A stretch of DNA of 64,000 nucleotides from an uncultured Gammaproteobacteria bacterium (GTDB taxonomy: Bacteria > Pseudomonadota > Gammaproteobacteria > JABDGN01): the NCBI GenBank assembly GCA_963975985.1, contig CAXBIY010000001.1:179020-243019 (forward strand), given 5' to 3'. Shown here one piece after another: positions 27,659 to 46,512 of this stretch. Below the pieces are notes generated by a model, which did not search any database, was not told the DNA's origin, and saw nothing but the letters and a program-made list of their open reading frames with translations. The translations under genes were made by a program, and so were the position numbers. The stretch's first letter is position 1; the number at the start of each line of letters is the position of its first letter.

Positions 27659-27697
27659 ATTTTACTAAGCCCTAAGTTTTAACACCTAAGCCCTAAT
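27659..27697. repeat. Heptamer-type repeat (CTAAGCCCTAAG...CCTAAGCCCTAA) upstream of atpG
   Basis: Inverse of the CTTAGGGCTTAGGGCTTAG block at 28570-28640 downstream of atpG. Confidence 0.6.
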
Positions 27698-28566
27698 TGA
27701 TGGCAAACGTTAAAGAAATTAAATCGAAAATTGGTGGTGTGAATAAAACGCGTAAAATTACGCGTGCCATGGAAATGGTTGCCGCCAGTAAAATGCGCAA
27801 AGCACAAGATCAAATGCATCGTGCTCGACCTTATGCGCATAAAATTCGTCAAGTCATTGGTCATATTGCCAACAGTAACCCCGAATACAAACATCCGTTC
27901 ATGCAAGAGCGTGAAGTGAAACGCGCAGGTTACATTATTGTATCGTCTGATCGTGGTTTATGTGGTGGTTTGAATATTCGTTTGTTTAAAGAAATGATGG
28001 TGCATATGAAAAATTTGCGCACGAACGATGTCGAAGTCGATTTGTGCCCCATCGGTACGAAAGCCGAAAACTTTTTTCATCGCTTTGGTGGTAACGTTGT
28101 TGCCCATACCGATCACTTGGGTGATACGCCAAGCATAACCGACTTAATTGGTGTCGTAAAAGTATTGCTCGATATGTATTCTAATGGTGCATTGGATGCA
28201 GTGTACGTGTGTTCAAATGAATTCGTGAATACCATGATTCAAACGCCACAAGTTGAGCAGTTGCTACCGATTATTCATGCGGACGATGAAAGTTCAGAAC
28301 ATCATCAATGGGATTATATTTATGAGCCTGATGACGCGCGAGCGATTCTAACCAGTTTGTTAACACGTTATGTCGAATCACAAGTGTATCAAGCAGTGGT
28401 GGAAAACTTAGCGTGTGAGCAAGCGGCGCGAATGGTAGCGATGAAAAACGCGACCGATAACGCCGGTAAAATGATAGATGAATTGCAATTGGCGTATAAC
28501 AAAGCACGTCAATCAGCGATTACACAAGAATTAGCAGAAATTGTTGCGGGTGCAGCAGCAGTATGA
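27697..28566 (+). CDS. atpG: F1 ATP synthase subunit gamma
   Basis: [18 protein letters not shown]-terminal signature. Confidence 0.9.
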
Positions 28567-28569
28567 ATG

Positions 28570-28640
28570 AGGGTTTAGGTTTTAGGGCTTAGGGCTTAGT
28601 AGGATTGAGGATTGTGGGCTGAGGGTTGAGAAATATCCTT
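28570..28640. repeat. Degenerate heptamer tandem repeats (TTAGGGC / TTGAGGA units)
   Basis: GGTTTAGGTTTTAGGGCTTAGGGCTTAGTAGGATTGAGGATTGTGGGCTGAGGGTTGAG. Confidence 0.6.
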
Positions 28641-28707
28641 CAAAAAACATGACTAAGCTACAAGCACTTAGCACTGAATGCCGAACCAAGAAACAAGGTG
28701 ATGAGAC

Positions 28708-30096
28708 ATGTCAGAAGTTAAAGCGAAGTTAGGTAAAGTAGTACAAATCATTGGGGCTGTCGTCGATGTGGAATTCCCACGTGATGAAGTGCCAAATATT
28801 TACGATGCGATTATTGTCGGTGCAACAGGTTTAACACTTGAAGTGCAACAACAGTTGGGTGATGGTATCGTGCGAGCAATTGCCATGGGTTCATCAGAAG
28901 GTTTAAAGCGTAACATGGAAGTTGAAAATACTGGTTCCGCGATTAAAGTACCTGTAGGCAAGCCTACCTTGGGCCGCATCATGAATGTATTGGGCGAAGC
29001 CATTGATGAAAAAGGTGAGATTGAAGCTGATAAGCGTGAAATTCATCGTGCTGCACCTAAATATGATGAGTTGGCAGCCAGCAGTGAAGTATTAGAAACC
29101 GGTATTAAAGTCATCGACTTGATTTGCCCATTTGCACGTGGTGGTAAAGTCGGTTTATTTGGTGGTGCAGGTGTCGGTAAAACCGTTACCATGATGGAAT
29201 TGATTCGTAACATCGCGGCTGAGCACAGTGGTTACTCTGTCTTCACTGGTGTGGGTGAGCGTACACGTGAAGGTAATGATTTTTATCACGAGATGAAAGA
29301 ATCCAACGTATTAGATAAAGTATCATTAGTTTACGGTCAAATGAATGAGCCACCAGGCAACCGTTTACGTGTGGGCTTAACCGGTTTAACGGTTGCTGAA
29401 AGTTTTCGTGATGAAGGTAATGATGTTTTATTATTTATTGATAATATTTATCGTTATACCTTAGCCGGTGTTGAAGTTTCAGCTTTGTTAGGCCGCATAC
29501 CATCAGCAGTGGGTTACCAACCTACGTTGGCAGCAGAAATGGGTGCCTTGCAAGAGCGCATTACGTCAACGAAAACAGGTTCAATCACCTCGATTCAAGC
29601 GGTTTATGTCCCCGCGGATGATTTAACAGATCCATCACCCGCCACAACCTTCGCACATTTAGATTCAACTATCGTGTTGTCTCGCCAAATTGCAGAGTTA
29701 GGTATTTATCCCGCTGTTGATCCATTGGATTCAACGAGTCGTCAGTTAGATCCACAAGTTGTCAGCCAAGAGCATTATGATACGGCGCAAGGCGTGCAAA
29801 GAACCTTACAACGTTATAAAGAATTACGTGATATTATCGCTATTTTAGGTATGGATGAATTATCAGAAGATGATCGTTTAACGGTATCACGTGCACGTAA
29901 AATTCAAAAATTCTTGTCACAACCTTTCTTCGTGGCAGAAATTTTCACGGGCGCACCGGGGCATTACGTGCCATTAGCTGAAACCATTCGTGGATTTAAA
30001 GGTATTATTGACGGTGATTATGATCACTTACCTGAACAGGCTTTTTATATGGTAGGAACCATTGATGAAGCTGAAGAGAAAGCTAAGAAGCTATAG
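28708..30096 (+). CDS. atpD: F1 ATP synthase subunit beta
   Basis: GGAGVGKT Walker A, 462 aa. Confidence 0.95.
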
Positions 30097-30117
30097 TTGG
30101 CGTTTAGAGCTTAGAGT

Positions 30118-43614: not shown

Positions 43615-43726
43615 GATATTAAACCTTAAATTGCGTATAATTGGTGTTTGCAGGGCTTAGGCAGAATGTGACAAGTTAGCTTGTATTTTGCCTAAGTCCT
43701 GACTATTTTAACGAGAAAAGTTAGCT

Positions 43727-44857
43727 ATGCCTATAGAAAAGTTATTTACTTCAGAATCGGTCTCAGAAGGCCATCCTGACAAAATCGCCGATCAGATTTC
43801 TGATGCGGTGCTGGATGCTATTTTAGCGAAAGATCCCAGTGCGCGTGTCGCCTGTGAGACCTTCGTTAAAACCGGCATGGTCTTAGTTGGCGGTGAAATC
43901 ACCACCAATGCGTGGGCCGATGTCGAAGATGTTGCCCGCCAAACCATCAAAGACATCGGTTATACGCACTCAGATTTAGGTTTTGACTACGAATCATGCT
44001 CCGTCGTCTCAGCGATTGGCAAACAATCAGCTGATATTGCCAGAGGCGTGGACGGTAAAGACCAAGGCGCCGGAGACCAAGGCTTAATGTTTGGTTACGC
44101 CTGTAATGAAACCGAAGTACTCATGCCCGCACCAATCACCTATGCGCACCGCTTAATGCAACGCCAAGCCTTATTACGCAAAAACGGTGCGTTGCCATGG
44201 TTGCGTCCCGATGCCAAAAGCCAAATCACCTTTCGTTATATCGATGGCAAGCCTGTTGGTATTGATACCGTGGTGTTATCGACACAACACAGTGAAGACA
44301 TTTCGCAAGCCGATTTAATCGAAGCCGTGCGTGAAGAAATTATTAAACCGGTGTTACCCGAACACTATATCGATGACAAAACCCGTTTCATGATCAATCC
44401 AACCGGACGTTTCGTCGTAGGCGGCCCATTAGGCGATTGTGGTTTAACCGGCCGTAAAATCATTGTCGATACGTACGGTGGCATGGCGCGCCACGGTGGT
44501 GGTTGTTTTTCCGGTAAAGATGCCACTAAAGTCGATCGTTCTGCGGCCTATGCCGCACGATACGTTGCAAAAAACATTGTTGCCGCAGGCCTTGCTGACA
44601 AATGTGAGCTACAGCTTTCCTACGCGATTGGCGTCGCTGAACCGACATCAATTAGCATTGAAACTTTTGGTACGGGTAAGTTATCAGAAGATGAAATCAT
44701 AAAAGTGGTACGTGAAAATTTTGACTTACGACCACGCGGCATTATCGATATGCTAGATTTAAATCGCCCGATTTATAAATCTACCGCTAGCTACGGCCAC
44801 TTCGGCCGTGAAGAAGAAAACTTCACCTGGGAAAAAATCATAAAACTAAAAATTTAA
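43727..44857 (+). CDS. metK: S-adenosylmethionine synthetase
   Basis: [21 protein letters not shown] and GGGAFSGKD-like motifs, 376 aa. Confidence 0.95.
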
Positions 44858-44992
44858 CCCCTTCTCCCTTGGTGGGTGAGATTGTAGGGTGGATAAAAAT
44901 TCGCGCGGAGCGCGGATATATCCACCAGCGGTGGTAAATGATAGAGCTCTGGTGGATATGTATTTGCTGTCGCTCACACTCATCCACCCTAC
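44858..44992. repeat. Composite: family-3 hairpin followed by a full family-2 MITE (44884-44992)
   Basis: CCCCTTCTCCCTTGGTGGGTGAG then GTAGGGTGGATAAAAATTCGCGCGGAGCGCGGATATATCCACC...CATCCACCCTAC. Confidence 0.75.
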
Positions 44993-45099
44993 AGGGGAAT
45001 GACTCAACAATGCCCCCGGCGGGGAGACAGCCAAAAGGGCGGATCAAAAACATCCGCGAAGCGACAAACTGAATAACCTAAACAAACGAGAAACCCAAC

Positions 45100-46392
45100 A
45101 TGACCACAACAGACTACAAAATCGCCGACATCACACTAGCCGACTTCGGTCGCAAAGAAATCGCCATCGCCGAATCCGAAATGCCCGGCTTAATGGCGCT
45201 TCGCGAACGTCACGCCACCGAGCAACCCTTAAAAAACGCAAGAATCGCCGGTTGCTTACATATGACCATCCAAACCGCCGTGTTAATTGAAACTTTAACC
45301 GCATTAGGTGCTGAAGTCCGTTGGTCATCATGTAATATATTCTCCACGCAAGATCATGCAGCCGCTGCCATTGCCGCTAGTGGTGTGCCCGTGTTCGCAT
45401 GGAAAGGCGAAACAGAAGAAGAATACCAATGGTGCATCGAACAAACGATTCATGGTGTGAATGGTTGGACGCCGAATATGATTTTAGATGACGGTGGTGA
45501 TTTAACCGTATTGATTCATGAAAAATATCCTGAACTCTTTAATGACATTCGCGGCATCACAGAAGAAACCACAACCGGCGTGCATCGCTTGTATCACATG
45601 GCCGATAAAAATGAATTATTAGCCCCAGCCATGAACGTGAATGATTCTGTTACCAAATCGAAGTTCGATAATTTATACGGTATTCGTGAATCTGTCATGG
45701 ATGGCTTGAAACGCGCAACCGATGTCATGGTCGCCGGTAAAACCGCAGTTATTTTAGGTTATGGTGATGTTGGTAAAGGTGCTGCGCAAGCATTCCGTGG
45801 TCTAGGCGCTAATATTTGCGTCACTGAAATCGATCCTATTTGTGCATTACAAGCGGCAATGGAAGGCTATCGTGTCATGACTATGGAAGAAGCCGCTAGC
45901 CAAGGCGATATTTTTGTCACCACAACCGGCAACAAAGATGTGATCACGCATGACCATATGGCCGCCATGAAAGACCAAGCTATTGTTTTGAATGTCGGAC
46001 ATTTTGATAATGAAATCGATGTCGCCTCACTGCGCCAATACGAGTGGGAAAATATCAAACCACAAGTCGATCACATTATATTCCCTGATGGTAAACGTAT
46101 TACCTTATTAGCCGAAGGACGTTTAGCCAACCTAGGCTGTGCGACCGGTCATCCTAGTTTTGTGATGTCCAACTCATTCACCAACCAAGTCATCGCACAA
46201 ATAGAATTATGGTTACACGCCGAAAATTATGAAAACCAAGTGTACATGCTACCGAAAAAATTGGATGAAGACGTTGCAAGATTACACCTAGATAAACTCG
46301 GTGTGAAATTAACTACGCTTAGCCAATCACAAGCGGACTACCTAAGCATTCCCAAAGAAGGGCCCTACAAACCCGATTATTATCGATATTGA
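45100..46392 (+). CDS. ahcY: Adenosylhomocysteinase
   Basis: NAD-binding GYGDVGKG motif, 430 aa. Confidence 0.95.
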
Positions 46393-46512
46393 GGATTAGG
46401 ATTGAGGATTGAGGATTTAGAGGGCGTTGAGTCGCTTCGCGATTTTTAATATTAAATTAATCATCACGTAGCGATTCTTTAGTCCCTCAATCCTCAATCC
46501 TCAATCCTCAAA
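46393..46512. repeat. Inverted arrays of the TTGAGGA heptamer (GAGGATTGAGGATTGAGGA ... TCCTCAATCCTCAATCCTC) around a ~55-bp core
   Basis: 19-bp perfect inverted repeat; could form a long hairpin between ahcY and rsmE. Confidence 0.8.

Follow-up and report, generated by a model that had tools for sequence, protein, structure and literature searches.

Short tandem arrays of a G-rich heptanucleotide stand at gene boundaries in a 64,000-nt stretch of the genome of an uncultured gammaproteobacterium (contig CAXBIY010000001.1, positions 179,020 to 243,019 of the forward strand; this whole stretch is called the window below). They lie between genes of the ATP synthase operon and beside other housekeeping genes, often as inverted copies on the two sides of a single gene. 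A number of scattered bacterial lineages are rich in heptameric intergenic repeats, for which nobody has demonstrated a role. The locus poses two questions: to what class of repeats do these arrays belong, and do they affect the transcripts that carry them? We found that the transcribed spacers of a conserved block of housekeeping genes have been enlarged by tandem copies of a degenerate 7-nt unit. The arrays very probably are a lineage-specific family within the class of G-rich heptanucleotide simple-sequence repeats (SSRs) that includes those of Xanthomonas, the short tandemly repeated repetitive (STRR) sequences of Nostoc, and the repeats of Beggiatoaceae. We lean toward the view that such lineage-specific heptamer SSRs act mainly as RNA structural punctuation of operons; that the RNA structures of the arrays matter functionally is a more tentative proposal, suggested by predicted folds. 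New here are an independent lineage and new units, combined with the strand and position rule known from Xanthomonas and Nostoc, in arrays without G-quadruplex potential.

The heptamer arrays and the rule of their placement

The unit can be summarized as a degenerate 7-nt sequence, TTRRGRN; the versions read in the G-rich orientation are TTAGGGC, TTAGGTT, TTAGAGC, TTGAGGA, and TTGAGGG. All of the arrays cited in the original prediction were present when the coordinates were re-read; positions were off by 1-5 nt, and two minor errors of letters occurred. The atpG-proximal array, CTAAGCCCTAAG, begins at 27665 rather than 27666; the atpG-distal one is TTTTAGGGCTTAGGGCTTAG at 28580-28599, the leading C noted for it being wrong; and those on the two sides of fpr are CCCTAAGCCCTAAGCCC (42067-42083) and CTTAGGGGGTAGGGCTTAGG (42868-42887), shifted from where they had been placed. 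Three weak copies had been missed, two (41291-41304 and 42974-42984) within the range covered and one (22179-22205) outside it. In all, seven clear and five weak copies occupy positions 22179-46511 of the window, as follows.

22179 to 22205, plus strand: weak degenerate array (TCAGGA TTGAGA TTTAAGG ACTGGGC), 14 nt upstream of the start of a minus-strand gene.
27663 to 27696, minus strand: array A, about five units in the atpA/atpG spacer; the mRNA carries the CUAAGCC type and the G-rich strand is antisense.
28568 to 28631, plus strand: array B, about nine units, beginning 1 nt past the atpG stop and 76 nt 5' of atpD.
30102 to 30131, plus strand: array C, four units of the TTAGAGC/TTGGAGT variant, beginning 5 nt past the atpD stop.
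41291 to 41304, plus strand: weak two-unit copy (TTAGAGT TTAGCGC), directly after the stop (41290) of an outer-membrane protein (OMP) beta-barrel gene.
42063 to 42087, minus strand: array D, (TTAGGGC)x3, overlapping the stop of fpr (42084-42821, minus strand), between convergent genes.
42868 to 42895, plus strand: array E, four degenerate units on the non-coding strand of fpr, 46 nt 5' of its start.
42974 to 42984, minus strand: weak copy of one unit (minus-strand sequence GCTTAGGGCAG), immediately past the stop of a marC-like gene; possibly a short partner of array E.
43650 to 43702, plus strand: arms F1 and F2, a 17-bp hairpin of two-unit copies (CAGGGCTTAGGCAGAAT and ATTTTGCCTAAGTCCTG) in the divergent marC-like/metK region; a weak member.
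46388 to 46420, plus strand: array G, 4.5 units of the TTGAGGA type, with the ahcY TGA stop in the first unit.
46421 to 46482, plus strand: core (spacer) between ahcY and rsmE, 62 nt, itself an imperfect palindrome.
46483 to 46511, minus strand: array H, (CCUCAAU)x4 in the mRNA, ending 5 nt 5' of the rsmE ATG (46517).

The names atpA, atpG, atpD, atpC, metK, ahcY, and rsmE were confirmed with NCBIfam and Pfam. The marC-like gene belongs to the MarC family, and "fpr" stands for an FNR-family reductase that scores under the Fpr cut-off.

Several arrays press closely on their neighbors. Array A ends 3 nt 5' of the atpG ATG (27700), array C reaches into the TTG start of atpC (30130) and supplies a GGAG 6 nt upstream of it, and the start codon of rsmE lies directly 3' of the C-rich array H; neither atpG nor rsmE has a Shine-Dalgarno (SD) sequence. 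The F1/F2 hairpin begins just downstream of a promoter-like TATAAT (43636-41). Degeneracy is also visible within arrays. The left half of array B is of the TTAGGGC type and its right half of the TTGAGGA type, such that the two sub-types abut in one spacer; the two 30-nt halves of B and array E are 73-77% alike, and array G contains one 6-nt unit, TTAGGA.

The periodicity is well supported. Tandem Repeats Finder called period 7 at 28570-28599, 28601-28630, 30102-30129, 42066-42084, 46388-46417, and 46485-46511, and in a self-similarity scan of periods 4 to 12, period 7 was the sole enriched one, with four to five arrays vs. zero to two at each other period. Two exact units (TTRRGRN x2) occur eight times in the window against an expectation of 0.37, and three units with at most two mismatches occur 19 times against 0.44; no shuffle in 100 reached either count. 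When one mismatch was allowed in the two-unit pattern, 27 matches were found vs. 11 by chance, and the excess was confined to the array sites already identified. The three-unit pattern matched once in 678 kb of other, mostly gammaproteobacterial, loci.

The claim of a heptamer family at gene boundaries stands: this is one degenerate family with two sub-types, and all twelve copies lie between genes, intruding on them by no more than a stop or start codon, in a window of which intergenic DNA makes up 13.2%. The arrays are confined to a conserved, mostly co-oriented housekeeping block. Neither random nor unpaired placement was seen, since inverted pairs exist (G/H, F1/F2, A/B, and D/E) and a strand rule is followed by 11 of the 12 copies, for which the nearer open reading frame (ORF) is 5' of the G-rich strand (one-sided binomial, 0.003). 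Distances to the ORF on that side range from -5 to 46 nt, and the exception is array C (5 vs. -2 nt). Viewed as mRNA, the rule places G-rich sequence after a stop codon and C-rich sequence just before a start codon. Half of the copies follow stops, orientations being mixed, and two touch the stop codon itself (the TGA of ahcY within the first unit of G and that of fpr within D). The alternation of orientation along the chromosome among the strong arrays (6 of 8 transitions, P ~0.15) was not significant. A stop triplet is found on either strand of TTAGGGC (TAG on one, TAA on the other), and three such units therefore leave no frame open in either direction; TTGAGGA has a stop (TGA) only on its G strand. 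With every frame closed by three TTAGGGC units, arrays would be kept out of ORFs.

The same rule has been described for the (GGGAATC)n repeats of Xanthomonas and the (GGGGAYT)n repeats of Nostoc. These are ~90% intergenic, mostly between co-oriented ORFs in conserved contexts, and their G strand is found up to 50 bp past a stop when it is the coding strand (stop overlap included) or up to 50 bp ahead of a start when it is the non-coding one (Rehm et al. 2015, PMC4692102). They form 70-75 convergent inverted pairs per genome, are mostly transcribed, and are not associated with surface genes or mobile elements; they have no established function (PMC4692102). Our arrays share with this class the tandem, often degenerate, G-rich 7-nt units in numbers from two to many, the location and strand rule, the inverted pairs, and the want of any surface-gene or mobile-element association. 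They differ in the units (GGGCTTA/GAGGATT, not GGGAATC, GGGANTN, or GGGGAYT), in that no array has four intact G3 units, and in the host, an uncultured gammaproteobacterium of 43% GC in which a single 25-kb cluster was observed.

The composition of the units raises the prospect of G-quadruplex (G4) or i-motif formation. (TTAGGG)n is a classic G4 former, and TTAGGGC units give G3 tracts with 4-nt loops. Further, the Xanthomonas and Nostoc repeats form G4 in vitro, and such folding was proposed for (GGGAATC)4 (PMC4692102). However, no stretch of four G3 tracts with loops of at most 12 nt exists on either strand of the window, at most two to three consecutive G3 units are intact in any array, and the TTGAGGA and TTAGAGC sub-types have just GG or single G. 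We therefore regard G4 or i-motif formation as very improbable here. Because the rule is kept without G4 potential, it would stem from constraints of transcription and translation or from RNA pairing, not from G4. The resemblance to telomeric repeats that had been remarked upon is coincidental, as these arrays of 2-9 units are internal and lie between housekeeping genes.

Two broader categories also deserve mention. Cyanobacterial STRR heptamers, brought to notice by Mazel and co-workers in 1990, reportedly occur in tandem in non-coding DNA and in the intercistronic spacers of operons, their function being unknown. They differ from the present arrays in their units and phylum and are often far longer (up to 26 units). 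The pec operon of Nostoc provides an STRR example (PMC4692102). Among long simple-sequence repeats (LSSR) with units of 5-11 nt, heptanucleotides are the most abundant, occur sporadically across lineages, and have been proposed to originate by polymerase slippage, according to the accounts of Mrazek et al. 2007 given in PMC4679880 and PMC4692102. LSSR is a statistical category rather than a sequence family, and the arrays described here are short and degenerate.

Inverted pairs and their predicted RNA folds

The arms between ahcY and rsmE (G/H) had been presented as exact 19-nt complements around a 55-bp core. They are indeed complementary, perfectly so over 17 nt (46398-46414 with 46485-46501), but the 19-nt match is 95% and the spacer measures 62 nt. 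The whole 124-bp region between the two genes, including the non-repeat core, is an imperfect palindrome with 53-nt arms that are 75% complementary, and its RNA is predicted to fold at -63.7 kcal/mol (z -9.3). For the metK leader (F1/F2), a hairpin is predicted at -33.1 kcal/mol (z -5.0) on the sense strand vs. -22.0 on the other. Known RNA families offered no match: Rfam 15 at gathering thresholds returned only a tRNA, and a search at E<=1 over 41.2-47.4 kb found no real RNA family. A match to the plant microRNA precursor MIR8643 at 46382-46519 (35 bits vs. a gathering threshold of 135) was set aside as an artifact of the long-stem shape. Scans of viral contigs with both units gave a handful of unrelated matches.

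Comparable shapes are known from the enterobacteria, in which the repetitive extragenic palindromic (REP) and enterobacterial repetitive intergenic consensus (ERIC; also intergenic repeat unit, IRU) elements are likewise imperfect palindromes; located in transcribed spacers, they fold into stable RNA stem-loops, and each has a defined consensus and many dispersed copies. REP stem-loops stabilize upstream mRNA segments. The 124-nt ahcY/rsmE element is ERIC-like in size and shape and is predicted to form a stable stem-loop, as is the metK leader. In contrast to REP and ERIC, the heptamer arms alone recur here, the core being unique in the 84 kb of this genome that were covered (the window plus flanks).

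Could the inverted arms instead be terminal inverted repeats (TIRs) of small non-autonomous elements, as had also been offered? Under such a model, the ahcY/rsmE palindrome, and even atpG and fpr as cassettes, would be miniature inverted-repeat transposable elements (MITEs). The palindrome has a MITE-like size, and the genome holds real MITE-like elements of another family. Nevertheless, BLAST of both hairpin cores against the 84 kb yielded single copies, and no target-site duplication was found at 46388/46511, where the flanking ATAT merely extends the palindrome. The enclosed genes occupy conserved operon positions, that of atpG being universal, and, instead of defined termini, the arms consist of tandem units that vary in number. 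Such repeats are also free of mobile-element association according to Rehm et al. (PMC4692102). On these grounds, we hold the transposon model to be highly improbable and abandon this part of the original prediction.

The arms on the two sides of atpG (A and B) are 39 nt long, 82% complementary, and 861 nt apart. When one is read in mirror, irregular units prove to be common to both (ATcAATtAGGGcTTAGGTgTTAaaaCTTAGGGCTTAGTA vs. ATgAATgAGGGtTTAGGTtTTAgggCTTAGGGCTTAGTA), and 32 of 39 positions are identical, a level attained by 0.8% or 0.015% of random arrays of family units, depending on the unit pool. Four of their seven mismatches are G.U in the sense RNA, and the duplex is predicted at -53.3 kcal/mol for the sense vs. 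-37.8 for the antisense strand. The global minimum-free-energy (MFE) fold of 27600-28720 (1121 nt) contains a 38-bp helix that pairs 27656-27694 with 28570-28609 at probabilities of ~1 and encloses atpG; forbidding this helix costs 33.8 kcal/mol. Similarly, the global MFE fold of the fpr transcript has a 15-bp E-D helix enclosing fpr. Taken with the ahcY/rsmE and metK folds, these predictions make the suggested pairing within a long transcript thermodynamically plausible. Mirror-copy arms that are predicted to enclose atpG in a 38-bp helix, in an operon without its coupling junctions, might be notable to specialists.

The pairs that bracket single genes exist, as had been claimed. Bracketing is nevertheless largely a by-product of the published rule, because G-rich arrays after stops and C-rich arrays before starts will leave genes between inverted copies (PMC4692102).

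Relatives and the roles that the arrays may play

In the closest relatives by AtpG (73-79% identity), atp spacers span just 2-26 nt, arrays are absent, and atpG starts 2-9 nt after the atpA stop. Here, the spacers measure 79 (atpA/atpG), 141 (atpG/atpD), and 33 nt (atpD/atpC), the extra length being arrays. Because the junctions of the relatives are short and array-free, we consider the arrays to be lineage-specific fillers. Judging by these distances, translational coupling at the atpG junction appears to have been lost; in the ATP synthase operon, repeats now take the place of tight coupling junctions, with atpG enclosed in the predicted 38-bp helix. Among GTDB species representatives, the best AtpG identities are 65% (Kangiella) and 62% (a Coxiellaceae metagenome-assembled genome, MAG), and RsmE relatives are at most 58% identical. 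L223, a different genome found via a search with an AAA_14/DUF4143 protein, has no arrays. One of the relatives at 73-79% AtpG identity belongs to an assembly whose contig numbers run past 453,000 and which probably represents a eukaryote genome.

The genome that carries the window was also recovered, at 99.98-100% identity, in a Tara metagenome (scaffolds 572 and 102) and in ERZ3422065. Its atp arrays are identical there, and for the 42-47 kb arrays the gene spacing in the TARA scaffold matches, a comparison at the level of spacing only. This result bears on phase variation, in which changes of copy number at contingency loci would switch the adjacent genes. Short tandem units are the classic substrate of slippage switching. 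However, no copy-number difference was found (by sequence for the atp arrays, by TARA gene spacing for those at 42-47 kb), the neighbors are core housekeeping genes (ATP synthase, metK, ahcY, and rsmE), and the degeneracy of the arrays lowers slippage. Phase variation was likewise discounted for the Xanthomonas class (PMC4692102), and we accord it next to no probability here.

Arrays of the same kind were found elsewhere. In a Wenzhouxiangella MAG (L074, 91-127 and 1010-1041), a (GAGTCCC)4 array lies 5 nt before the atpG start and a (GACGGAA)4 array 17 nt after its stop. These are non-complementary arrays at the same two atpG junctions that obey the same orientation rule, and the GGGACTC array fits the Xanthomonas-class unit GGGANTN. 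A sister Wenzhouxiangella MAG (L078, ~4870-4900) has a degenerate orthologous array copy, which is evidence of drift in length and sequence at a conserved position. Further, (TTAGGGC)3 is present on at least 120 JGI metagenome contigs of 41-72% GC. On bacterial contigs the array lies on a stop codon (L102 and L158) or directly after one (L168), and in L158 a G arm on an RsmE-like stop has an inverted C-arm partner before a MatE gene. Among arrays on JGI contigs with flanking ORFs on both sides, 20 of 29 are nearer the ORF 5' of the G strand. Other JGI contigs are eukaryotic and telomere-like (L110, L120, and L160), with (CCCTAAA)n tracts, kilobase arrays, and few or no long ORFs. The Wenzhouxiangella and JGI arrays demonstrate that the kind is widespread and that a C-type array upstream with a G-type array downstream is a consequence of the positional rule, no complementarity being needed.

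A further precedent, likewise gammaproteobacterial, is the TAACTGA repeat of marine Beggiatoaceae, which forms arrays of 2-6 units in spacers, many of them ending a few nucleotides before starts that have no canonical ribosome-binding site (RBS); essential genes are included, and the units carry stop codons (MacGregor 2015, PMC4679880). There, control of translation of the adjacent cistron by a binding protein has been proposed (PMC4679880). By analogy, the present arrays could be multivalent sites for an RNA- or DNA-binding protein (S1, Csp, or CsrA-like). It is consistent with such a role that start codons lie 0-5 nt from the ends of arrays A, C, and H, that atpG and rsmE lack an SD sequence, as do the repeat-containing spacers of BOGUAY (PMC4679880), and that TTGAGGA presents GGA every 7 nt. 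Yet both orientations occur in the mRNAs, hence no single RNA motif does; most G-rich copies follow stops rather than precede starts; and the GGA motifs are base-paired in the predicted hairpins. No candidate binding protein was identified. The TAACTGA repeats are also A/T-rich and occur as 169 direct sets vs. one inverted (PMC4679880), whereas inverted pairs are common here. We judge this explanation to be decidedly improbable.

The explanation that we favor, operon punctuation by RNA structure, would run as follows. Replication slippage on 7-nt units may have generated the arrays, and the atpG arms may reflect an additional inverted duplication or pairing that has been maintained. In-frame stops of the TTAGGGC units would exclude them from genes, and orientation would be selected because SD-like G-runs are disfavored before starts and C-rich unstructured RNA after stops. 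Co-transcribed G and C arms could then fold into long stem-loops that punctuate the polycistronic mRNA in a REP/ERIC-like manner, affecting the stability of segments and uncoupling or limiting translation of the next cistron.

In a more specific version, arms would have been recruited around atpG and fpr as cistron-bracketing stems for processing or throttling, setting the gamma subunit at ~1/3 of alpha/beta in a lineage now devoid of the usual translational coupling. The predicted 38-bp duplex would begin 6 nt ahead of the atpG start and end 4 nt past its stop, with the ORF in the loop, and the 15-bp duplex would likewise close fpr into a loop. Stems flanking 16S and 23S rRNA close sequence into a loop in the same fashion. 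Once the 3' arm was transcribed, the stem might hide the initiation region of the SD-less atpG, or RNase III might cut it and divide the atp transcript into separately stable segments. We consider this version improbable.

A number of observations weigh against the favored explanation. Translating ribosomes would be in competition with helices whose arms lie ~800-860 nt from each other. Over four pairs, G.U pairing favors the sense strand by just 9:5 (4:0 and 2:0 in two of the pairs), which is not significant, and the single-array spacers (atpA/atpG, atpG/atpD, atpD/atpC, and 42045-42083) fold no better than shuffles. Every copy lies within one 25-kb stretch; the other 39 kb of the window and 20 kb of adjoining DNA from this genome are free of arrays. 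No array-carrying close relative was found, nor any relative of intermediate AtpG identity. Finally, the three near-identical assemblies show no copy-number difference, such that slippage was not directly observed.

Under a neutral explanation, slippage-prone heptamers are tolerated wherever they do no harm, and the inverted pairs and bracketed genes are by-products with no role. The strand rule would then reflect purifying selection against SD-like G-runs before starts and against C-rich, Rho-loading tracts after stops, together with the stops in all frames. The tight spacers of the relatives work without arrays, and the genome holds at least four other intergenic repeat families, suggesting relaxed repeat control. 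The non-complementary arrays at the same atpG junctions in Wenzhouxiangella and the non-significant G.U bias are also as this explanation would have it, and Rehm et al. found no regulatory role for their repeats (PMC4692102). Against it, the mirror sharing of irregular units by A and B exceeds the expectation for independent arrays (P ~0.008 to 0.0002), the ahcY/rsmE spacer is palindromic throughout, non-repeat core included, and the coupling junctions of an essential operon have given way to arrays, a change that would probably have consequences. Overall, we find the purely neutral explanation somewhat unlikely; it is nearly as good as an effect through RNA. Whichever holds, the locus provides a compact, testable case of whether heptamer repeats tune expression within operons, and, if they are neutral, it shows the extent of spacer expansion that an essential operon tolerates.

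Other repeats and gene content of the window

The window contains several further repeats. A palindromic intergenic repeat of ~36 nt (CGTCATCCCGCGGCTTGACCGCGGGATCCAG) is present in at least ten copies per orientation, often as head-to-head pairs, at 629-680, 9973-10147, 10434-10621, 15620-15699, 21341-21484, 53117-53214, 59872-60029, and 63877-63956. It occurs once as a 27-nt tandem (21360-21426) and occupies spacers of the accessory regions, where heptamer arrays are absent. MITE-like elements of ~110 bp with perfect 15-nt TIRs (GTAGGGTGGATAAAA and TTTTATCCACCCTAC) lie at 6400-6510, 35043-35153, and 44884-44990, with half copies at 20458-20498 and 40517-40557. A third intergenic repeat family (TCTCCCCGCGAGGGGAGAAGGTGGCC ... 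GGCCGGATGAGGGG), some parts of which form hairpins, is found at 30549-30600, 35005-35033, 36957-37036, and 56640-56700.

A gene-free stretch of 1.1 kb (59152-60226) comprises four units of ~180-190 bp, two of which are 90% identical and in tandem. Each carries the hairpin AAAAAATGCCGCTATCGGTTTCCCGGTAGCGGC followed by T-rich sequence, and the units could be tandem small RNA genes or terminators.

At 6896-9370, the window encodes an 824-aa ankyrin-repeat protein with about nine 102-bp repeats. Genes for OTU-domain, HipA, and PIN/Phd proteins and several AAA_14/DUF4143 genes are located near it and in the flanks (L083 and L085). This gene content, typical of intracellular or host-associated bacteria, suggests a host-associated lifestyle. 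A run of paralogous OMP beta-barrel genes extends from 37082 to 41290, and their leader regions are duplicated (37938-38219 vs. 38806-39088, 71-82% identical).

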